From an uncultured Candidatus Saccharibacteria bacterium (GTDB taxonomy: Bacteria > Patescibacteriota > Saccharimonadia > Saccharimonadales > JAGQNJ01), in the NCBI GenBank assembly GCA_964577565.1, contig CAZNZL010000001.1:78566-142565 (forward strand): 64,000 nt of DNA. The letters are read 5' to 3'. Of this stretch, positions 1-45,294 are shown piece after piece (position 1 is the first letter of the stretch; the number at the start of each line of letters is the position of its first letter). The notes under the pieces are model-generated. The model had not been told where the DNA came from. It searched no databases and saw only the letters and a program-made list of their open reading frames with translations. Made by a program: the position numbers and the translations under genes.

Positions 1-2232
1 ACGTTTCCGAGCTTTGAGGTTGACCCGCTGGCGGCTATTACTGCCTCATTAGCCAAGCTCGAAGAAAATGAGCGGGCGGTGATTCAGTTTTTGGTACGCC
101 CAGCCTTTAATAGTTGGTATAGCAAGGCGCAAAAGTATGCTGCCAGCATTCAAAATGGCACCAGTTTTGGCGGTCTGGCAAAAGCCTTAATGAGCGGTAC
201 TGATAACACCACCGCTCGACAATTGAGCCCTGTAGAACAAGCGCGCATTAAAGCTGCAGAAGAAAAGAGCCAAAAATTAGCCTACGAGACCAAAATTCGC
301 GTTATTTATGAGGGTAATGTAAGTTCGGTAGAGGCGAATATGCGCCTGCAAGCCATCATTGCCAGCTTCAAACAGTTTAACTCAACTAATCTTAACGGCT
401 TCACGGCCAAGCGCAACCATACGTTTAACCCCGGTGACGCTTCAATTATAAACCGAGTTTTTAGCGGTACTGGTTTTGTGTGCAACATTGAAGAAGTTGC
501 TAGTTTGTATCACCTGCCCCACACCAACGTAGAAACGCCATTTATTCAGTGGGCTACGGCCCGAACCGCCGAACCACCGGCCAATTTGCCGATAGTTTCT
601 GCTAGTGGCTATGATCCGTCGAGCGTCAGCCCGATTGGTGTCACTAACTTTCGTGGCGGCAATACGGCGTTTGGCTTGCCCAGGACCGATCGAGGTCGGC
701 ACCTCTATATTATTGGTCAAACCGGCGTAGGTAAATCGGGTTTACTTGAGCTGTTGACTATATCCGATATTCATAGTCCGTTTGGCTTTGCGGTAATTGA
801 CCCGCACGGCGATTACGCTATTAATATTTTGCGGCGTATTCCGGCTTCACGCGCTAAAGACGTAGTTTATTTTAACCCGGCCGACACAGACTATCCGATT
901 GCCTTTAACCCAATGGAGGTTTATGACGACAAGCTTAAAACTCATACTACTTCAGAGCTTATCGGTGTCTTAAAGCGCATGTTTGAATCTTGGGGCCCGC
1001 GCCTCGAGTACATTTTGCGCTATACCTTGCTTGCCCTGCTTGATTATCCAGAGTCAACCATGCTTGATATTACGCGCATGTTAACCGACAAAAAGTTCCG
1101 TAGCGAGGTGCTTTCGTATGTCAACGACCCGGTCGTAAAAAACTTTTGGTTGGTGGAGTTTGCCAGCTGGAACGACAAATTTGCCGCCGAAGCCGTTGCA
1201 CCAGTGCTCAACAAAGTCGGTGCCTTTACGGCTAACCCAACCGTTCGTAATATTATTGGCCAGCCAAAAAGCAGCTTTAATATCCGACACATTATGGATG
1301 AAAAGAAAATTCTTATTGTTAATCTATCTCGCGGTTTGATTGGTGAGGACAACGCTGCCCTGCTTGGTGCGTTGTTGGTTACCAAAATTCAGATGGCGGC
1401 CATGTCGCGGGCCGATATTGACGCTAGCGAACGCACACCGTTTTATCTGTACGTTGACGAGTTTCAAAACTTTGCCACCGACTCGTTTGCAACCATCTTG
1501 AGTGAGGCACGTAAGTACGGTCTATGCTTAACCGTTGCCAACCAATACATTGCTCAGATGAGCCAAGAGGTACGCGATGCGGTGTTTGGTAACGTTGGCT
1601 CGACTGTTGCCTTTCGAATGGGTGCGGATGACGCTCGCGTGATGCAGCGCTACTTTGAGCCTAAGTTTGAAGAGCATGACCTGGTGCACATGCACAACCG
1701 CAACTTCGTTATTAGCCTTACTATTGGCGGCGAGAAAGTCCAGGCTTTTTCGGGTACCTCACTTAACTTGCCAGCTCGAACCGAGACTGACCAAATGAGT
1801 GCCATTATTGCTCATTCACGTGAACAATACGCGCGCCAATTGCAGCATATCGAGTCATTCGTACAAGAGCGCTACGTCACGCCGTCGGTGCAAGCGACCC
1901 AACCTAAACCACCAAAACCCACACCTAAACCTACACCCGTTGAGCCGCCCAAAGCCACACCACCCGCTAAACCTGCAGATGCTACCCCTGCGCCATCTGC
2001 GCTAGGGGCAGTTATTGTGCCCGAGCCAGAAGTTCTAGATGAAACAAAGCCCAAGCGTAAACGCCGTCGGCGCCGCAAAAAGAAGAACAGTGATAGTAGC
2101 CAGCCTGTCACGCAGTCCTCTACAACTACCGCTATTGAAGAGCGCCCTGAGCACGAGCTTGCCAAGCCAGAAGACGTTGCGCCGCCTAGTGATGGCCATT
2201 TGGGCGACGAAGACACCATCCACCTCCGGTAG
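1..2232 (+). CDS. Type IV secretion coupling-protein-like ATPase (TraD/VirD4/TraG type), 5' end outside window
   Basis: The frame is open from nt 1, with no stop upstream of the track start at 79. Walker A GQTGVGKSG; Walker-B-like FYLYVDEFQNF; C-terminal Pro/Lys/Arg-rich tail (PKPPKPTPKPTP...KRKRRRRRKKK). Confidence 0.75.
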   Translation, partial: TFPSFEVDPLAAITASLAKLEENERAVIQFLVRPAFNSWYSKAQKYAASIQNGTSFGGLAKALMSGTDNTTARQLSPVEQARIKAAEEKSQKLAYETKIRVIYEGNVSSVEANMRLQAIIASFKQFNSTNLNGFTAKRNHTFNPGDASIINRVFSGTGFVCNIEEVASLYHLPHTNVETPFIQWATARTAEPPANLPIVSASGYDPSSVSPIGVTNFRGGNTAFGLPRTDRGRHLYIIGQTGVGKSGLLELLTISDIHSPFGFAVIDPHGDYAINILRRIPASRAKDVVYFNPADTDYPIAFNPMEVYDDKLKTHTTSELIGVLKRMFESWGPRLEYILRYTLLALLDYPESTMLDITRMLTDKKFRSEVLSYVNDPVVKNFWLVEFASWNDKFAAEAVAPVLNKVGAFTANPTVRNIIGQPKSSFNIRHIMDEKKILIVNLSRGLIGEDNAALLGALLVTKIQMAAMSRADIDASERTPFYLYVDEFQNFATDSFATILSEARKYGLCLTVANQYIAQMSQEVRDAVFGNVGSTVAFRMGADDARVMQRYFEPKFEEHDLVHMHNRNFVISLTIGGEKVQAFSGTSLNLPARTETDQMSAIIAHSREQYARQLQHIESFVQERYVTPSVQATQPKPPKPTPKPTPVEPPKATPPAKPADATPAPSALGAVIVPEPEVLDETKPKRKRRRRRKKKNSDSSQPVTQSSTTTAIEERPEHELAKPEDVAPPSDGHLGDEDTIHLR

Positions 2233-2235
2233 CTA

Positions 2236-2265
2236 TTGACAAAACTGCACAAAGTATGCTATAAT
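2236..2265 (+). promoter_or_regulatory. Near-consensus sigma70-type promoter with extended -10
   Basis: TTGACA at 2236-2241, an 18-nt spacer, then TGcTATAAT (TATAAT at 2260-2265). It lies directly after the stop of the upstream gene and faces the 2445 ORF. Confidence 0.5.
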
Positions 2266-2328
2266 AGTAAGATAGGGTGTTGAGTATCTATATCTATTCC
2301 ACCCCTGTTATTTGACAAGCAGGCTTTT

Positions 2329-2379
2329 ACCAACGGAGCTACGGTTATATATAAAATGTATAACTATAACTCCGTTGGT
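2329..2379 (+). promoter_or_regulatory. Leader hairpin in the predicted 5' UTR
   Basis: ACCAACGGAG (2329-2338) pairs perfectly with CTCCGTTGGT (2370-2379). An inner AT-rich stem pairs GTTATA with TATAAC. Confidence 0.35.
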
Positions 2380-2444
2380 GAGATACAGAATACTCACGTC
2401 TTGCAGTGCAGGATGCCACTCTGGCAATGGAGAGGAAGGTAAGC

Positions 2445-2858
2445 ATGTCGGATTGTACATTCAGCAACCATGGCCGGACTGTTCAGTTCAGGGATGTCGA
2501 GATCACAATCAATCGTGACCTCGATCGGGAACGCCTGTGGATGTTGGCAGTCCTCTTCAACCCGCTAAGTCCGTCGTGGTCAACCATGGCTGGCGGTTTT
2601 CTACTGCCACTTCCCGAGGAGCGCACCAATGCGCGTGTCGAGGTCATGGTCGTTCGTAACGAGTACGCGGAGCCGCTGACCATCAGCATCCAGCTGCTCA
2701 ACGCAGCAGTGGATCTCAAGCAGTATGTCATGGCGGTCGACTTCCTCGCAAGGCTGATCTCTATGGGGGGTCTGAGCCACGAGCTCTCGCCCTTCGTCAA
2801 TGATCAGCCCATCGAGAGCGACCAGACGACGTACTCGCACGTGACGGTCCATCCGTGA
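2445..2858 (+). CDS. Hypothetical protein (orphan, GC-rich relative to neighbours)
   Basis: The in-frame ATG at 2445 is preceded by GGAGAGGAAGG. The ORF is 137 aa and I recognise no motif in it. Long shadow ORFs on the opposite strand (2483-2800, 2601-2852) are consistent with locally elevated GC. Confidence 0.5.
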   Translation: MSDCTFSNHGRTVQFRDVEITINRDLDRERLWMLAVLFNPLSPSWSTMAGGFLLPLPEERTNARVEVMVVRNEYAEPLTISIQLLNAAVDLKQYVMAVDFLARLISMGGLSHELSPFVNDQPIESDQTTYSHVTVHP

Positions 2859-2960
2859 TCCCCCGGGGGTAATGAGCAGACGTGAGAGTATGTAATTAAA
2901 TGAGTTGTGAGTAGTTACTAACTACGCCCTCTTTATTACTTATTCTGACGCCTGCTTGTT

Positions 2961-3015
2961 ATTCCCTCCATGAATGTGCGTTCATGCTGATGAGTCCAAA
3001 AGGACGAAAGCGAAG
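2961..3015 (+). ncRNA. Candidate type III hammerhead ribozyme
   Basis: CUGAUGA at 2987-2993. Stem II is G-UCC/AAAA/GGA-C (2994-3005). GAAA at 3006-3009. Stem I is the closed hairpin CATGAA-TGTGCG-TTCATG (2969-2986). Open stem III pairs 3009-3014 with 2962-2967 (5 of 6 pairs). Predicted cleavage is after the CUC triplet, at 2968/2969. Confidence 0.6.
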
Positions 3016-3054
3016 ACCCCCAATAATGTTCTTTCCAAAAGAACCAAACCCTCT

Positions 3055-3506
3055 CACACCTTTTGTATGGCCAAAAGGTGTAACCAAAAGGCCACTGGCG
3101 ACTGAAAAACAATGATGTTCATTCACGTGTCTGGTATCCGGATTCTACGTAACGACCCTTCGGGGTCGCCCGGCTTATTGCCGGGTGAGCCTCGAATCAC
3201 GGTATACCAGACTACGCTCATTCTCTTCAGTTTTTCAGAGCCAGAATCCTAGGCTCTGAACACACCCGAATAAGCCAGTCAAAGCTACAACTTCTAGGCC
3301 GAGGATGTTTGAGCCGGCAGCTGCCGGGGAGTTCCGCAAGGCTGTTGTAGTTCTTTGACATATGGCTTATGTCGAGTGGTGTTCAGTCGCCTAGTGGGGT
3401 TTTTGCCTTCTTTTTGACCTACAGCAAAAAGAAGGGCGCTTGAAGGTAACGAAGTTACCGAAGCGAAACTATTTAAACTTTGGTTACACTTTGGTCAATA
3501 CAAAAG
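3055..3506 (+). ncRNA. Large multi-branched structured element (candidate ncRNA; a MITE-like palindromic element is not excluded)
   Basis: Nested complementary segments: 3061-3085/3482-3505, 3092-3106/3382-3397, 3129-3140/3200-3212, 3141-3145/3194-3198 and 3262-3291/3344-3382. Local hairpins: 3154-3167 (UUCG loop), 3169-3185, 3235-3259, 3405-3415/3426-3437 and 3438-3464. Strand is uncertain; + is favoured by the upstream hammerhead and one G-T pair. Confidence 0.4.
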
Positions 3507-3516
3507 TTTCAAAGAC

Positions 3517-4974
3517 TTAAAGATTCTGCAGCTGTTGTTGGAGACGCCGAAGACTAACCTCTTTGCCCAAGACCGCGAGGGTCTCTGCTAAGCCCGGGCT
3601 GGCAGGTGCTTGTGTGACTGCAATGCGAATTAGGCTAAACAGTACAGCTGGCTTTTGGTCGGTGTCTTCAAGCAATTGGTTTAATCGTTCTGTGAGGTCT
3701 TCAACCGAAAAATCACTTTGCTCAATTGAGTTTATGGTAACCTCTAACAGGTTTTTAAGCTCTTGAGCCGACATTTTCTTGAGTTGCTTGTGAGAGGAAA
3801 TAAGCGCATTATCGAGCGGCAAATCTTTAAAGAAAAATATCGTTAATTCTGACAGCTCAGCAAAGTATTTTAAGCGTTCTTGCACAAGGCCCAACACCTG
3901 TTTTTTATATGCATCATCATAATCAGCAGCTTCTTTTGGCCAAAAGCCATCAACCCGGGCGTATAAGTCATCAAGCGATAGCTGTCGGATAAAGTGCCCG
4001 TTAGTCCAGGCCAGGCGGCGCTCATCAAAGTGCGCCCCACTTTTGCCAACACGGCTGAGGCTAAATTTTTGAATGAGCTCATCGGTAGTAAAAATCTCTT
4101 GCTCGGTGCCGTCATTCCAGCCGAGGGTCGCAATAAAGCTCCGCAGCGCTTCCGGCAAATAACCCCGTTTTATGTAATCAAGAATATCTTTGGCGCCATC
4201 GCGCTTAGAAAGTTTTTTGTTGCCTTGTTCATTTAGAATATGCGGCATCGTAGCAAAAATCGGTGGTTTTATGCCGAGGGCTTCGTACAAGTTGAGGTAA
4301 TTTGGTATGCTGGCAATAAACTCCTGGCCGCGAATAACGTGCGTAATCTGCATCTCTGCATCATCAACAATGTGCGCAAAATTATAGGTTGGGTAGCTAT
4401 CTGACTTAATAAGAATAAAATCGTCAATTACCTCCGGGCCGGTTGATAAATCACCCATGACCTCGTCATGCCATTGATAACTTTTAGGGTCGGATTTAAA
4501 ACGCAAGGGTTGGGTGCCATCCCAGGCTGGTGGGTTCTCTGGCCGGTGGTTGCGGTATAAAAATGGTTTTTTGCTTGCTTTAGCTTGTTCACGGAAGACC
4601 TGAACTTCTTCAGGGCTGTATGGGTCTGCATAGGCTCTACCCTGCTCAATTAATTTATTGGCCCATTGTTTGTAAATTTCAAGCCGCTCGCTTTGGCGAT
4701 ATGGCCCGAAGTCACCCGCTTTGTCTGGACCCTCGTCGTACTCCAAGCCAAGCGCATCAAGGCTTTGAATTAAATGTTCGGCTGAGCCTTCGACTTCCCG
4801 TTTCTTATCGGTGTCTTCAAGTCGTAATATAAATTGTCCGTTATGCTGGCGCGCTACCAACCAGGCAAATAAGGCGGTGCGGATGCCGCCAACGTGTAAA
4901 AAGCCCGTTGGGCTTGGCGCAAATCTAGTTCGCACCCTGTTCACTTGAGACTCCGTTATTAGAATGTGTCGCAC
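3517..4974 (-). CDS. gltX: Glutamate--tRNA ligase
   Basis: RFAPSPTGFLHVGG (HIGH-type motif) and KLSKR (KMSKS-type motif). Full length is typical of bacterial GluRS. The true start may be slightly downstream of 4974. Confidence 0.95.
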   Translation of the reverse strand: MRHILITESQVNRVRTRFAPSPTGFLHVGGIRTALFAWLVARQHNGQFILRLEDTDKKREVEGSAEHLIQSLDALGLEYDEGPDKAGDFGPYRQSERLEIYKQWANKLIEQGRAYADPYSPEEVQVFREQAKASKKPFLYRNHRPENPPAWDGTQPLRFKSDPKSYQWHDEVMGDLSTGPEVIDDFILIKSDSYPTYNFAHIVDDAEMQITHVIRGQEFIASIPNYLNLYEALGIKPPIFATMPHILNEQGNKKLSKRDGAKDILDYIKRGYLPEALRSFIATLGWNDGTEQEIFTTDELIQKFSLSRVGKSGAHFDERRLAWTNGHFIRQLSLDDLYARVDGFWPKEAADYDDAYKKQVLGLVQERLKYFAELSELTIFFFKDLPLDNALISSHKQLKKMSAQELKNLLEVTINSIEQSDFSVEDLTERLNQLLEDTDQKPAVLFSLIRIAVTQAPASPGLAETLAVLGKEVSLRRLQQQLQNL

Positions 4975-5275: not shown

Positions 5276-6340
5276 TTACAGGCTGCTAGCTATGTTGACT
5301 AGCTGATCGCTGCTCAGTGACGTGCTTTCTATGCGATACCAAACGCCGCCGTTAACCCAGGTTGCATTACCCCTGTCGTACAGGTAGATAGTTTTGCCTT
5401 TTTCTTGTTCTATTTCAAACTCTTTGTCGTTGGTGGCAAGAAAGTTCTCTTGCAAGCTGCTGCTGTTCCAGTGGGATACTTCTTGCGTTAGAGTGTAAGC
5501 CCGATCGTCGGTATTTGAGTTAAACGAAATAACCACTTGACCAGGTTTGTAGCTAATAGGAGCTTTAACTTTATAACCCGATGGTTGATACTCGGGCAAA
5601 TTAGCATCAAAACCAGCGCGAGCACTGGCCAGCTGCATATTAAAGTTTGGAATATTCATATACGCTATAAAGCCAATGAGCGCCAGGCCGGCAAGCAGGC
5701 CGCTGCTCCAGGCAAACTTCTTACTCTTGCGATTTTGTCTTTTAGTGCGAGATTTTATTGCGGGCTTTGTTGCCTCGGCGCTGCGTTGCATAGCCTTATT
5801 AAACAGCTCTTCAGAGGCAGAAGATCGAACAGTTGCGTGCTCGGTGTGCCTTACGGGGGTGATAGGCTGGTGTAGGCGAGGCTTATGAGCGGGCGGCGTC
5901 TTCACTTGCAGTGGTTCGTGGCGCTTTTCTACGGGACGATGTACGGGGTGATTGCCAAATTTGCTGATGTATGGACTTTTAGCAATGGTTTGCGCTCGCG
6001 TTTCTCTTAACGGGTTAATAAGGCGTTGTCGATGAATTGGTTTTATTTCATTAATTTGACCCAGCGTAGCCGGCTTTTTAACTGCCCTGCGCATAAGGGT
6101 TTTTGACTTTTGTGGTTTGTGATGTTTGACACTATGACTGACATGCTGGCGCACCGGTTTTGGTTTTAGGGTTGGTGTGCTGCGCTGAGGGGATACTTTA
6201 GCGGGGCTGGCTTTTGTAGTAACTGATTTAACAACCCGGGGCTGTACAAATCCATCAACCGATTGCCCGCGTATTGGTACGCCAGTTCGTACATCGTACA
6301 CTCGTCCGTTAATTTCTAGAACGTTTTTGTGCTTACTCAC
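5276..6340 (-). CDS. Membrane-anchored hypothetical protein
   Basis: 354-aa ORF. It has a very basic Pro/Lys-rich N-terminal half, one hydrophobic segment (WSSGLLAGLALIGFIAYM), and a C-terminal globular part. Confidence 0.6.
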   Translation of the reverse strand: MSKHKNVLEINGRVYDVRTGVPIRGQSVDGFVQPRVVKSVTTKASPAKVSPQRSTPTLKPKPVRQHVSHSVKHHKPQKSKTLMRRAVKKPATLGQINEIKPIHRQRLINPLRETRAQTIAKSPYISKFGNHPVHRPVEKRHEPLQVKTPPAHKPRLHQPITPVRHTEHATVRSSASEELFNKAMQRSAEATKPAIKSRTKRQNRKSKKFAWSSGLLAGLALIGFIAYMNIPNFNMQLASARAGFDANLPEYQPSGYKVKAPISYKPGQVVISFNSNTDDRAYTLTQEVSHWNSSSLQENFLATNDKEFEIEQEKGKTIYLYDRGNATWVNGGVWYRIESTSLSSDQLVNIASSL

Positions 6341-6461
6341 AGATTAGTTGGCCCTCTGTTATGAATGTCCTTATAATCATAACCTCTTTATGTCGTCTTA
6401 CGCAAGCTTTAGCCTGCCCTAGTCTTATACTGGTCGACATGCTATAACTATAATAGTTGTT

Positions 6462-7940
6462 ATGGATTTTTTAGACCCAAACAAAAAACGCTCAAATCGA
6501 ATTAAATTGTACGTAGGCTACGGTCTTATGGCGATTTTAATTGGTATCGCTACTTCTATTTTGCTGCTTGCAGCTTCTGGCTATGGCTTAGATGGTTCTG
6601 GCAAGGTTATTCAAAACGGCTTAGTTTTTGTTAACTCGCGGCCTGGCGGTGCTGATGTGTATATTGAAGGTATTCATAATAAATACAAGCAGCAGGCCAA
6701 AACCGATACCCGCCTGGTGCTTAAAGAGGGCCGGTACAGACTTACGTTGGTTAAGGATGGTTATCGTTCGTGGCAACGAGAATTTAGTCTTGAGGGCAGC
6801 AGCGTAGAACGGTTTGCCTATCCATTTTTATTCCCAGAAAACATTAAAACCGAAGATGTTAAAACCTACGCCACCCCACCAAAGTTTATCGCGCAAAGTC
6901 CCTCACGCGAGTGGATTGTAGTTCAGCAGCCTGACAAGTTTGACACATTTGATGTTTATAACGCTAATGATCCAGACAAACCACCGGTTTCGTTTGCGGT
7001 GCCGGCCACTATTCTAACGCCTGCTACAAATGATCAATCGCTTGAGCTGGTTGAATGGTCTACCGATAACGCCAACATGCTGCTCAAACACACGTTTGAT
7101 GGCCAAGAAGAGTTTGTCGTAATTAACCGAGATCGTCCAGCAGAATCTTTTAATGTTACGGCGCGCACCAACCAACGCCCGTATCGAGTGGCCCTCAAAG
7201 ACAAAAAGGTCGATAAACTCTACCTTCATATGGCAAAGGATGGCCTTTTACAAGAAGTAGATTTGGCGTCCGGTGTCTTGACGCCGCTGGTAGCGCGAGC
7301 CTTTGCATTTAAACCGCACGGTGATGACATGGTGGTGTATGTTACGCCGCATGCAAGTAAAGCAGACAGAACATCGGTTCGCTTATTGACCCGTGAAAAA
7401 GACTATGAGCTGCGCGAGTTGCCCAGTAACACTACGTATGTCGTAGATGTAGCTCGTTTTGATGATGCCTGGTATGTGGTAGCAGGTGCCGCCAGCGAGA
7501 ACCAGGTGTTTGTTTACAAAGACCCGTTGAGCATCCTGACCAACGCTAATTCTAAAGAATCCCTGTTTGCCCGGACGCTGCGGATTGATAACCCCCAAAA
7601 AGTCTCGTTCTCTGCCAACGCAAGAATGATTGCGGCTCAATCAGGCCAGTCATTTGCGGTGTACGATGCAGAGACCGACCGCCAGTACCGCTATACGCTG
7701 CCCGCACCTATTGACTCCGGTCGCCCGGCCGAGTGGATGGATGGTCACCGTTTGCTAACCTCTACAGAAAAAACGGCTTACGTCTTTGATTTTGACGGTA
7801 TTAATCCGCAAAAATTACTCTCGGCTGACCCTTCGGTTACTATCATGTTCGATCGTGATTACGAGCTTTGTTACAGCGTAACAACCAATAGCGATGGCAC
7901 TGCCGTACTAAAACGGGGCAAGCTCGTCATCGAAGATTAG
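6462..7940 (+). CDS. PEGA domain-containing membrane protein
   Basis: N-terminal TM helix, then a PEGA-like segment (VNSRPGGADVYIEG...GRYRLTLVKDGYRSWQREF). Confidence 0.7.
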   Translation: MDFLDPNKKRSNRIKLYVGYGLMAILIGIATSILLLAASGYGLDGSGKVIQNGLVFVNSRPGGADVYIEGIHNKYKQQAKTDTRLVLKEGRYRLTLVKDGYRSWQREFSLEGSSVERFAYPFLFPENIKTEDVKTYATPPKFIAQSPSREWIVVQQPDKFDTFDVYNANDPDKPPVSFAVPATILTPATNDQSLELVEWSTDNANMLLKHTFDGQEEFVVINRDRPAESFNVTARTNQRPYRVALKDKKVDKLYLHMAKDGLLQEVDLASGVLTPLVARAFAFKPHGDDMVVYVTPHASKADRTSVRLLTREKDYELRELPSNTTYVVDVARFDDAWYVVAGAASENQVFVYKDPLSILTNANSKESLFARTLRIDNPQKVSFSANARMIAAQSGQSFAVYDAETDRQYRYTLPAPIDSGRPAEWMDGHRLLTSTEKTAYVFDFDGINPQKLLSADPSVTIMFDRDYELCYSVTTNSDGTAVLKRGKLVIED

Positions 7941-43262: not shown

Positions 43263-44735
43263 ATGAAAACTAAGGCATTTTTAATAGCAAGGGTATCAGA
43301 CCCTGAACAACGGCAGGCACTACCTGCACAGGTTTTACGGCTTGAAAAATACGCAAAAGATAAAGGCTACGACTACGAACTATTTGAGTTTGATGAAAGT
43401 GCATATAAAGATAACCGCAAAACTTTCAGCAAGATTGTTGAAAGCATACGCAACTACCCTGAAAACTGCATTGTGGTCTTTGATAAGATTGACCGCTATA
43501 CAAGGGATAGTTCGGCTGATGAGGTTAAGACACTGAACAAGCTGCGTGAGGACGGCAAGATTGAAATACACTTTCCGTCTGATAACTTGGCTGTTCATAA
43601 AAACTCGCCAGCACCTGACTTGTTCCGTCTAGGTATTGGCGTTGCACTTGCTCGCTACTACTCTGACAGCATTAGAGATAATGTTAAACGCCGCTTTGAG
43701 CAAAAGCTGAACGATGGCGAGTGGCCTGGTAAAGCACCGATTGGCTATGTAAATCACAGGATTAGCGACAAAGAAACAACGGTGCTACTTGATCAAGAGC
43801 GAGCTGGCTATATCAAAAAGGCATTTGAGCTGAGACTAATCGGTACACCATATAGAGGCATTGCCGCCCAACTCAAAAAAGAGGGTTTGCGAAACAATAC
43901 AGCCAAGCGTACACCAATTGGGCAAGGCTATATTGAGCAGATACTAAAAAATCCGTTCTACTATGGCGTTATGCGGTACAACGGCAAGCTGTACCCTCAC
44001 AAGTACGAGCCACTTATCAGCCGCAAGATGTTTGATAAGGTCCAAGCCGTAAATGAACAGCGAGGCACTAATCGCACCAAGAAACAAGCAATTGACTACA
44101 CCTTTAACGGCTTACTGAAATGTGGCAGTTGCGGTTGCAGTATTTCGTCTTATACAGCCAAAGGTAACGTCTATATGCAATGCAGCAAAGGCAAAGGTCC
44201 GTGCAAACAGCCACACATCAAAGAAAAGGACCTTGTGCCGCAGGTTGCTGCTATGGTTGGTCAGCTTGAAATGAACGAGGATATTGTTAACTACGTTATT
44301 GATGAACTACGCAAGCACCACGATAACCAACAGCTGTATTATGCAAATGCCATTGAGCAGACACGCACCGAGTACGACACAATACAGAAAAAGCTGCGTG
44401 TTTTGTATGACGATAGGCTCGATGGGCGTATTACTCTCACTGACTATGACGAATATGTAAAGGACCTAAAAGCTCGACAAGAGCAATTAGACGAACAGCT
44501 AGTTAGCTTGACGCATAACGATAAGAGTTTTATGCTAACCAGTTCGTATCTGTTAGAGATAGCTACAAAAGCCCCTCAATTGTTTCAAAGTTCGAAAGCG
44601 GCTCTAAAATCTAAGTTATTAAGGTTTTTACTTTCGAACTTGGTAATTCACGATAAAAAGCTCGTTTTCAATCTAAAAGCACCCTTTGATGTAATCGCCG
44701 AGTGCTCTCAAACTCAATCTTGGCTCCGGGGATAG
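43263..44735 (+). CDS. Large serine recombinase (integrase)
   Basis: N-terminal resolvase-type catalytic region (FLIARVSDPEQ), a recombinase domain, a Cys-rich zinc ribbon (CGSCGCSISSY...CSKGKGPCKQPH), and a coiled-coil tail. The last 5 codons and the TAG stop lie inside the tRNA-Asn 3' end. Confidence 0.9.
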   Translation: MKTKAFLIARVSDPEQRQALPAQVLRLEKYAKDKGYDYELFEFDESAYKDNRKTFSKIVESIRNYPENCIVVFDKIDRYTRDSSADEVKTLNKLREDGKIEIHFPSDNLAVHKNSPAPDLFRLGIGVALARYYSDSIRDNVKRRFEQKLNDGEWPGKAPIGYVNHRISDKETTVLLDQERAGYIKKAFELRLIGTPYRGIAAQLKKEGLRNNTAKRTPIGQGYIEQILKNPFYYGVMRYNGKLYPHKYEPLISRKMFDKVQAVNEQRGTNRTKKQAIDYTFNGLLKCGSCGCSISSYTAKGNVYMQCSKGKGPCKQPHIKEKDLVPQVAAMVGQLEMNEDIVNYVIDELRKHHDNQQLYYANAIEQTRTEYDTIQKKLRVLYDDRLDGRITLTDYDEYVKDLKARQEQLDEQLVSLTHNDKSFMLTSSYLLEIATKAPQLFQSSKAALKSKLLRFLLSNLVIHDKKLVFNLKAPFDVIAECSQTQSWLRG

Positions 44736-44738
44736 GAT
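44719..44738. repeat. attR-like 20-bp direct repeat
   Basis: CTTGGCTCCGGGGATAGGAT is identical to 35648-35667 and overlaps the CCA, acceptor and T arm of tRNA-Asn. Confidence 0.75.
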
Positions 44739-45052
44739 TCGAACCTACGACCTAGTGGTTACACATTACCCATTATTTTCATAATGGCATGGACTATCTC
44801 ATCATCCGGCTATTGCCGGATGCTGGGCGCTAGTGAAGGATTATTGTTGGGCTCACCTTCTAGTCTCTGAACCTTCCGAAGGGCATGACCCCACCTTCGG
44901 CTTGGCTGCGGATTACCATGTCCGCCTTCTGGCGGATTTAGGCTTCCCGCAATTCACCCAGTTTTCACTGTTTTGTTGCCAAAACAGGCTGCACTTTATT
45001 GAGTAACTCAATGTGACTACAGCCACCCGCTCTACCGCTGAGCTACCCCGGA
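44721..45052 (-). tRNA. tRNA-Asn(GUU) interrupted by a group I intron
   Basis: Exon 1 (45052-45019) is TCCGGGGTAGCTCAGCGGTAGAGCGGGTGGCTGT. Exon 2 (44761-44721) is TAACCACTAGGTCGTAGGTTCGAATCCTATCCCCGGAGCCA. Joined, they give the loop CU-GUU-AA, a 5-nt variable loop and discriminator G. The UCC...GGA-G-CCA ends match my recollection of E. coli tRNA-Asn. Confidence 0.8.
44762..45018 (-). ncRNA. Group I intron (IC3-like), 257 nt, in the anticodon loop
   Basis: The 5' exon ends in U, and the P1 guide GCAGCC (44987-44992, reverse complement) pairs with GGCUGU with a terminal U-G. The intron ends in G. Core blocks AGCCAAGCCGAAGG, GGAAGGUUCAGAGACUAGAAGG and AGAUAGUCC resemble the tRNA-Leu and Azoarcus-type introns. 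Confidence 0.75.
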
Positions 45053-45294
45053 ATAAATTGTGATATGTACTCTCGACCCTTGTGCGACTTGAGTTGTTTT
45101 TCTCTCTCGATCGCTTCAGAGCGAGTGGCAAATGATTCTTTATAAATCATCTCCCATCTACCCTGAAATCGTGCAGTATAACTTTTTGATTTATGTTTAT
45201 TATTGTGCGCAATAAGTCGCGCGTCAATATTCTGGGTCTGGCCAATGTATACTTTCTTTACCGTGGGGTTGTATATTACATATACAAAAAACAT
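45043..45294 (-). CDS. GIY-YIG nuclease family small protein
   Basis: FVYVIYN...KVYIGQTQNIDARLIAHN...AIEREKQLK. The stop codon overlaps the first 10 nt of tRNA-Asn. Confidence 0.8.
   Translation of the reverse strand: MFFVYVIYNPTVKKVYIGQTQNIDARLIAHNNKHKSKSYTARFQGRWEMIYKESFATRSEAIEREKQLKSHKGREYISQFIPG

Follow-up and report, generated by a model that had tools for sequence, protein, structure and literature searches.

The window analysed here is a 64,000-nt stretch of DNA from an uncultured Candidatus Saccharibacteria bacterium (contig CAZNZL010000001.1, positions 78,566 to 142,565 of the forward strand), and the subject of this report is a strongly structured region at positions 3055-3506 of that window, a candidate large non-coding RNA lying between two convergent genes. 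The first of these genes (79..2232, +) encodes a VirD4/TraG-like type IV coupling protein with the Pfam domains TrwB_AAD_bind, DUF87 and TraG-D_C, of which the C-terminal 717 of 868 residues are present, the gene being truncated by the window start. The second, gltX (3517..4944, -), encodes a glutamyl-tRNA synthetase (Pfam tRNA-synt_1c and Anticodon_2), and its stop codon lies 10 nt beyond the last base of the structured region. The VirD4-like protein is identical to P0121 (868 aa) and GltX is identical to P0001; both of these proteins occur on one NCBI contig.

Approximately 80 VirD4-centred loci from GTDB genomes were compared with this locus (approximately 85 related loci overall, 1.46 Mb). 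In the relatives L087-L090 the stop codons of VirD4 and gltX are merely 2-15 bp apart, and in L001-L005 and L118-L124 gltX is directly followed by a gene of the DUF3048 family. Since these genes abut in relatives, window positions 2233-3516 represent a 1.28-kb insertion between convergent genes. The insertion contains, in order, a promoter, a conserved leader, a GC-rich orphan open reading frame (ORF), a hammerhead ribozyme motif and the structured region. The sigma-70 promoter (TTGACA-18 nt-TG-n-TATAAT; 2236..2265, +) matches the consensus at 12 of 12 positions, carries the extended -10 TG and begins 4 nt past the VirD4-like stop codon, and no second + strand promoter was found ahead of the structured region. 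It is followed by the 5' leader (2266..2323, +) and by the ORF (2406..2858, +), which encodes 150 aa from a GTG or 143 aa from the ATG at 2427. The gap between this ORF and gltX is 660 bp long and contains the structured region.

A preliminary description of positions 3055-3506, made from the letters alone, had claimed nested long-range complementarity and had proposed shuffled controls on both strands, a scan of Rfam and a look for additional copies. The RNAfold energies were -201.4 kcal/mol for the + strand and -194.5 kcal/mol for the - strand, corresponding to z-scores of -11.05 and -12.59, and none of 100 dinucleotide shuffles was as good on either strand. The present gap has the lowest z (-12.7) of 95 gaps that lack an ORF and measure 330 nt or more, drawn from the window and the approximately 85 related loci. 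All four helices named in that description can be read from the sequence and recur in the minimum-free-energy fold, including the inner helices, the three-way junction with its UUCG hairpin and an imperfect stem of approximately 30 bp. Its statement that no ORF of note lies here also holds, as no conserved ORF was found in 3055-3506; protein-level matches are at most 27 aa long, in several frames and on both strands, and lie under conserved nucleotide blocks.

The features of the fold, all given for the + strand, are as follows. The outer arms (3060-3088/3479-3506) form 27 bp in the minimum-free-energy fold. Inside them the P2 helix (3092-3106/3382-3397; 15 bp with one bulge) closes three central domains. 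Domain D1 (3126..3216) is a three-way junction with a stem at 3126-3145/3194-3216, a UUCG-capped hairpin GACCC-UUCG-GGGUC (3154-3167) and a second hairpin CCCGGC-UUAUU-GCCGGG (3169-3185). Domain D2 (3234..3260) is a hairpin, UUCAGAGCC...GGCUCUGAA, with the conserved block CAGAGCCAG, and D3 (3263..3378) is a long imperfect hairpin with arms at 3263-3291/3344-3378. The 3' module (3398..3470) contains GGGGUUUUUGCC, the D4 hairpin (3406-3416/3425-3435) and D5, a stem-bulge-stem (3437-3441/3461-3465 and 3445-3450/3454-3459) with a GAA loop, and ends in AGCGAAAC. The 3' tail (3471..3506), which pairs with 3060-3088 as the outer arm in the window, carries an 11-nt duplication (3473-3483/3484-3494) and the conserved UUUGGUCAAUACAAAAG (3490-3506). 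Ahead of the structured region, a linker (the a-block, 3016..3051) contains the hairpin GUUCUUU-CCA-AAAGAAC (3028-3044) and a CCAAACC tail. Its CCCC (3017-3020) and AACCAAAC (3043-3050) are complementary to a conserved GGGG (3396-3399) and UUUGGU close to the 3' end, and a long-range pairing between them is possible.

An orthologous arrangement is found in L020, a Saccharibacteria metagenome-assembled genome whose VirD4 shares 89-90% identity with that of the window; L091 comes from the same organism as L020. The order of elements is the same, the same promoter is present at 5707-5736, and the nucleotide match covering window positions 2872-3485 is full length (E 1.7e-30). Identity between the two is distributed very unevenly: 87% over promoter and leader, 83% over the linker 3016-3051, 65% over the hammerhead, 64% over the 3' module taken with the preceding P2 3' strand (3379-3470, with long exact blocks shared), 54% over the 5' pseudoknot described below and the P2 5' strand, 43% over D3, and the noise level of 42% over the ORF region and 35% over D1-D2. 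At four-fold degenerate sites of VirD4 and gltX the identity between the two genomes is 0.40-0.45. Neutral sites are thus near saturation, which places the conserved blocks under purifying selection. The leader was found in the window and L020 and in no other locus.

Helices of the window and L020 were matched by hand around exact anchor blocks, and the nine that were compared hold 16 compensatory, one one-sided, two broken and 47 unchanged pairs. The three aligned D3 stem segments (within 3270-3291/3344-3370) alone account for 10 compensatory and 12 unchanged pairs with none broken, so that this stem is kept at 43% sequence identity. The P2 core GGCGAC/GUCGCC (3097-3102/3386-3391) becomes GGCAG/CUGCC in L020 through two compensatory changes, and is GGCGGC/GUCGCC in a more distant relative, L019. 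Further, in D5 one U-A pair is replaced by C-G (compensatory) and another by U-G, D4 shows a paired insertion/deletion, and the counterpart of D1 is structured though its sequence is only 35% identical. The L020 RNA itself folds well (z -6.7); the fold of its + strand is more stable than that of its - strand by 17-18 kcal/mol and contains 17-18 G-U pairs, the other 7-12. Judged from this comparison, promoter, hammerhead and structured RNA are conserved as one unit in L020, and compensatory change keeps the helices paired. A separate observation concerns the D5 tail of L020, GGAGCGAAA (6902-6910), which is complementary over 9 bp to the 5' strand of hammerhead helix III and the cleavage site (6421-6429) and might tether the mRNA end left by cleavage or pair in competition with folding of the ribozyme. 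A regulatory switch in which this tail mimics the helix III strand was dropped as a candidate, the 9-bp complementarity not being kept in the window.

The preliminary description took two 25-nt arms as the outermost closure of the structure. The arms are indeed present, as the 27-bp helix of the fold, but they are specific to the window and do not form a conserved closing stem. The 27-bp arm depends on the 11-nt duplication, which is present in the window only; without it, only a far weaker outer helix is possible in L020. In its place, a local hairpin with an H-type pseudoknot covaries in L020 and six further sequences. The pseudoknot (3056..3094, +) consists of S1 (3056-3064/3073-3081), S2 (3068-3072/3090-3094) and the A-rich loop 3 AACCAAAA (3082-3089); in the window it and the outer helix are mutually exclusive, and S2 overlaps the outer three pairs of P2. 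In alignment A4, which comprises the window, L020, L019 and five phage copies (eight sequences), 90% of cells are paired and five pairs change on both sides, among them three of the five S2 pairs; none of 500 shuffles was as good, and slid controls were 35-59% paired. By this comparison, the outer 25-27-bp helix is not the conserved structure. In dimensions (S1 of 9 bp, loop 1 of 3 nt, S2 of 4-5 bp, no loop 2, A-rich loop 3 of 7-8 nt) the module resembles the H-type pseudoknots of frameshift signals, some riboswitches and exonuclease-resistant RNAs; the likeness is one of fold only, and no Rfam pseudoknot family matches it.

A covariance model of the 63-nt 5' module (R1), run over 1.48 Mb, recovers the window, L020, L019 and the phage members. 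In the viral contig IMGVR_UViG_3300003844_000089 (L099, L103 and L106; 61% GC) it detects the module seven times; there the module, present at least seven times as tcCACCTTTTGCTTCGCCAAAAGGTGgaGCCAAAAGGCGACCAC, heads intergenic structured repeats of approximately 240 nt that have no Rfam match. Two other weak matches were rejected, one in L038 (10397) as coding and one in L033 (4651) as a different hairpin.

The third member of the large-RNA family (window, L020 and L019) was reached through a weak nhmmer match (E 0.41). In L019 the element lies at 8085-7590 (-), in a 496-nt gap after the DUF3048 gene; it folds with z -11.8 and has no Rfam match. Its parts follow the same order as in the window: a 5' hairpin CACCUUUUG...CAAAAAGGUG, a linker GCCAAAAGC pairing with GCGUUUUUGGC, P2, a three-way-junction domain with a CCCUUCGG hairpin that is equivalent to D1, a second domain, a long third hairpin and a 3' hairpin CCUUUU...AAAAGG. 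Both of its ends are inverted copies of the 63-nt module, scoring 57 bits at the 5' end and 31 bits at the 3' end; in the window, R1 gives a weak inverted match of 16 bits at 3375-3436. The RNA thus occupies different sites in different genomes: the window and L020 have it between the hammerhead and gltX, L019 after the DUF3048 gene.

The first clue to a ribozyme at this locus was the string CUGAUGA-GUCC-AAAA-GGAC-GAAA, approximately 40 nt upstream of the structured region. It belongs to a predicted type III hammerhead at 2962..3015 (+), with three helices in type III topology, helices I and II being loop-closed and helix III open. Helix III is formed by 2962-2967/3009-3014 with a C2965.C3011 mismatch, helix I by 2969-2974/2981-2986 (6 bp with a 6-nt loop) and helix II by 2994-2997/3002-3005 (4 bp with an AAAA loop). 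The core is complete, with CUGAUGA at 2987-2993, GAAA at 3006-3009, U2967 pairing with A3009 and C2968 at the cleavage site, between C2968 and C2969. The Rfam model Hammerhead_3 (RF00008) gives 20.9 bits (E 0.12), short of its gathering threshold of 48.5; the low score is attributed to the minimal helices I and II, as the model expects a longer helix I and loops. The same hammerhead was recovered by nhmmer and pattern search in many of the 80 VirD4-centred loci. In an alignment of 14 family copies the core is unchanged in all 14, with N7 being U or C, 96% of cells in the three helices are paired, and 14 of the 16 pairs show compensatory change; none of 500 shuffles was as good, and slid controls were 32-44% paired. 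The copies of L020, L019 and L056 fold as canonical hammerheads. On the strength of covariation in these 14 copies, positions 2962-3015 are assigned to a genuine type III hammerhead family. The window element shares with RF00008 (clan CL00010) the full core, the three helices and the UC cleavage dinucleotide, and differs in its minimal helices I and II and its C.C mismatch; it is a neighbour of the structured region and not the region itself.

Hammerheads of this family very often have the end of a convergent gene at a distance of 30-230 nt, and eight of the 12 loci that bear a hammerhead have it no more than 1 kb from the VirD4 stop. The VirD4 3' flank is thereby seen to be a hotspot for cassettes of promoter, small ORF and hammerhead in either orientation; besides the window and L020, such hammerheads occur in L019 (13311-13373), L033 (12433-12495), L025 (5074-5136), L037 (9550-9612), L040 (8662-8724) and L056 (12211-12273). 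A second hammerhead class, with a helix II of GCUGU-AAA-CAGC, occurs as three tandem copies in L015 (6836-6898, 5462-5524 and 4689-4751, all -), 0.8-1.4 kb apart with ORFs between them. A hammerhead of the same family as that of the window is also present in the viral contig L117 (6571-6594, -; IMGVR_UViG_3300027816_000524, GC 0.39), with several small genes in a row behind it, each with TTTTAGAAATCATG ahead. A full-text literature search for hammerheads in Saccharibacteria brought up a single, unrelated paper, and their occurrence in this phylum appears to be reported here for the first time. Clustered hammerheads have been described at the flanks of non-constant genes in prophages and mobile elements, those of prophages cutting long transcripts in vitro (Perreault et al., 2011, PMC3088659). 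By analogy, that prophage system is the closest precedent for the present cassette: ribozymes likewise border small inconstant genes in one long transcript, and the three tandem hammerheads of L015 are similar. The present cassette differs in residing on a Saccharibacteria chromosome, in a hotspot behind a VirD4-like gene, and in that a 500-nt structured RNA, not a gene, follows the ribozyme in two species.

No known RNA family accounts for the region. Rfam was searched at gathering and permissive (E<=10) thresholds with the window, L019, the phage unit and six other loci. No family reached gathering in 3055-3506, nothing credible appeared at E<=10 in 2750-3650, the L019 relative had no match, and the loci overall yielded only tRNAs, a group I intron and the weak hammerhead. 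ARAGORN found no tmRNA. The preliminary description, too, had seen no RNase P, tmRNA or rRNA signature; 6S RNA, RNase P and tmRNA have no covariance-model match in the window, and RNase P, tmRNA, a group II intron remnant and omega or bridge RNA were set aside as candidates for want of a model match and of a partner gene in the vicinity. The large bacterial RNAs ROOL, GOLLD, OLE, raiA and HEARO offer the nearest architectural comparison, being of similar length (approximately 450-550 nt) and built from several domains, with three-way junctions, possible pseudoknots and a helix that closes the structure. They also share a patchy distribution, and the phage copies of the pseudoknot link the present element to mobile or phage DNA. 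The present RNA differs from them in having no model match at E<=10, in being known from three genomes only, in carrying a ribozyme ahead of it and in the window's helices being unusually poor in G-U. With regard to further copies, a blastn search with 2860-3520 against phage and plasmid records gave no match, two conserved 22-24-mer blocks gave none in viral contigs, and the first block gave none in JGI metagenomes. The single JGI metagenome match of the second block (L086) lies in an unrelated coding region and is regarded as chance.

Taken together, these observations lead us to favour, with moderate confidence, the view that positions 3016-3506 form the body of a large structured non-coding RNA on the + strand, of a family not yet described. 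The preliminary description had likewise preferred a large non-coding RNA to a terminator, a repetitive extragenic palindromic element or a miniature inverted-repeat transposable element (MITE), and the + strand promoter, the hammerhead, the compensatory pairs in L020 and the L019 relative support that preference; the hammerhead, the promoter and the insertion context had escaped it. Transcription would start at the promoter 2236-2265 and yield a transcript of approximately 1.25 kb that runs from the leader through an exchangeable orphan ORF and the hammerhead to the RNA. The hammerhead would cut co-transcriptionally between C2968 and C2969, so that the mRNA ends in a 2',3'-cyclic phosphate and the RNA behind it begins with a 5'-OH. 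The released RNA would then fold compactly, with the pseudoknot on its 5' side, a P2-closed core of D1, D2 and D3 and the 3' hairpins following. Such a fold would presumably confer a long life, and the RNA may have a role of its own, scaffolding or partnering a protein or another RNA, and not be a mere terminator.

Several findings weigh against this view. The large RNA of L019 has no hammerhead in front, and L019 possesses its own promoter-ORF-hammerhead cassette between VirD4 and gltX, with the hammerhead ending 35 nt from the gltX stop and no large RNA; in L033, a 62-aa ORF occupies that position. Because L019 and L033 split them, the large RNA and the hammerhead cassette are separable modules. 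The window fold has only six G-U among 159 pairs and its two strands are equally stable, which is unusual for a strand-specific RNA, and the three members taken together show only a weak difference between strands in this respect (41 G-U pairs on the proposed strand, 31 on the opposite one). The assignment to the + strand thus rests mainly on the promoter and the ribozyme, not on G-U counts. The covariation comes from few sequences, as there are only two orthologues and one distant relative and the helices were aligned by hand. In the ribozyme, the sole unpaired cell in helix III pairs two to five across the 14 copies is the window's C2965.C3011, and the window hammerhead folded alone adopts a minimum-energy structure without helix III. 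Its activity in this genome is therefore uncertain, and the predicted cleavage may be slow or lost. Lastly, intrinsic terminators were found at no site on either strand in 2150-3650, and no 3' end or terminator can be defined for the RNA.

The strongest rival explanation, which we nevertheless consider unlikely, is that a non-autonomous, MITE-like element of approximately 450-500 bp, bounded by inverted modules of approximately 60 nt that each contain a palindrome, landed behind the hammerhead cassette, and that the RNA would fold merely because the DNA is a nested palindrome. Such an origin would agree with the different locations of the element in different genomes, with the inverted matches of the 63-nt model at both ends of L019 and, weakly, on the 3' side of the window, with the recurrence of the module at least seven times in one phage contig, and with a window copy that is almost all Watson-Crick and equally stable on both strands. 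The palindromes, with arms of 9-11 bp and a spacer of 6-8 bp, may also resemble recombinase core sites. The ends of the element in the window are complementary over 27 bp, which is not conserved in L020, and those of L019 are the inverted 63-nt modules; any RNA with a closing helix would give the same pattern. Additional copies, which the preliminary description had suggested looking for, were found neither in the 64-kb window nor, beyond L020 and L019, in the 1.46 Mb of related loci, nor with the two 22-24-mers in viral contigs and JGI metagenomes. No transposase gene lies near (ORF list and Pfam scan), and no direct repeat of the kind left by target-site duplication flanks 3055-3506; the exact borders cannot be fixed, since conservation with L020 runs into the hammerhead. 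A dead MITE would decay, whereas here 16 compensatory changes have accumulated amid near-saturated neutral sites, and the covariation of S2 would be meaningless for a DNA repeat. Members share architecture but hardly any sequence, which is the reverse of MITE families. Like MITEs and the intergenic repeats Correia, BOX and ERIC, which fold on co-transcription, the present element is intergenic, located at gene 3' ends, apparently bounded by inverted terminal modules and predicted to be co-transcribed with the neighbouring gene, and the phage repeats are modular; unlike them, it is single-copy where searched, three to four times longer, multi-domain instead of a single hairpin and subject to compensatory change.

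A further explanation, to which we attach somewhat less weight again, is that the region serves as a bidirectional 3'-end buffer between convergent genes, its very stable fold ending or absorbing read-through from the strong cassette promoter before it becomes antisense into the essential gltX and, on the other strand, shielding the gltX mRNA at its 3' end from exonucleases. All three members lie between convergent genes at gene ends, the window copy stopping 10 nt short of the gltX stop; the window and L019 elements fold with nearly the same stability on either strand; there is no canonical terminator on either strand; and the hammerheads of this family, as noted, commonly lie close to the end of a convergent gene. 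A spacer is evidently dispensable, however, in the relatives whose VirD4 and gltX stops are 2-15 bp apart, and the cassettes of L019 and L033 face gltX without the large RNA. A long hairpin would suffice as a roadblock, so that neither a multi-domain fold nor a covarying pseudoknot would be required, and the - strand of L020 folds clearly worse than the + strand.

Least supported, and in our judgement very improbable, is a single-stranded DNA structure (an initiation, promoter or origin-like site) serving type IV secretion, for which the position approximately 800 nt downstream of the VirD4-like gene, the slight strand asymmetry of the window copy and conserved TTGAC motifs inside stems (3355-3359 and 3414-3418) could be cited, but to which are opposed the consensus promoter and the ribozyme, both favouring RNA, the absence of any relaxase or replication gene from the window region (ORF list and Pfam scan), an L019 relative that does not adjoin the VirD4 3' end, and the fact that type IV coupling-protein genes are common on Patescibacteria chromosomes, mostly without relaxases or conjugative context (bioRxiv 10.1101/2025.01.22.634366). 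Since such genes are common and mostly relaxase-free, a VirD4 neighbour by itself does not imply a conjugative element or oriT.

The ORF within the insertion has a GC content of 57%, compared with 43% for the genome. It has no Pfam family and no word-index homologue, and a search with 2427-2858 among 1.84 billion representative proteins gave two weak relatives only. The better of these (E 4e-8) aligns with a repetitive part of a CARDB/dockerin protein of 3436 aa; a CARDB-repeat identity for the ORF was set aside, a single weak match being uninformative. At the same position L020 carries an unrelated GC-rich ORF of 134 aa. Comparison of window 2233-2871 with L020 5704-6333 thus places unrelated ORFs (57-60% GC, in genomes of 43-46%) between conserved edges, namely the leader up to 2323 and the stretch from 2872, and both borders finish in ..AGCAG. 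From this pattern the ORF position looks like a cassette-exchange slot.

A more far-reaching proposal concerns the VirD4-flanking cassettes, whose RNA products would serve the type IV coupling protein of Patescibacteria as substrates or cofactors; the hammerhead would release defined fragments, and either the folded RNA or the mRNA with its host-like high GC would pass through the secretion machine to the high-GC actinobacterial host. The closeness of the cassettes to the VirD4 stop in eight of 12 loci, the 55-60% GC of their ORFs and the module shared with a phage of 61% GC are compatible with this idea, which we regard as a speculation with hardly any chance of being correct.

Two further observations from these loci are recorded here. 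Other large, closed, multi-hairpin gaps occur at L029 16154-16677 (z -8.7) and L074 1321-1830 (z -9.6); they match no Rfam family at gathering and have no sequence similarity to the window RNA. Elsewhere in the window, a tRNA-Tyr(GUA) gene is split by a group I intron at 44770-45011 (-) (flanks 44700-45080), which scores 91.9 bits in Rfam. ARAGORN misses the tRNA when the intron is present and finds tRNA-Tyr (GUA) after intron removal at some junction offsets.

The genomes of Saccharibacteria are smaller than 1 Mb and have shed nearly everything unneeded. Because genomes this small discard what is not needed, a 500-nt non-coding RNA with a perfect promoter and a selected fold is unlikely to be idle. 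If the favoured view of a large + strand RNA is confirmed, the element would constitute a new family among the large bacterial RNAs of unclear function, and the accompanying motifs would apparently be the first hammerhead ribozymes from this phylum. It would also reveal a hypervariable slot behind a coupling-protein gene, in which small, foreign-looking genes are swapped between conserved RNA signals, and would make it possible to test whether ribozyme processing in bacteria can yield a stable non-coding RNA. Should the far less probable delivery of such RNAs to the host prove true, it would amount to an RNA effector system in an epibiont.

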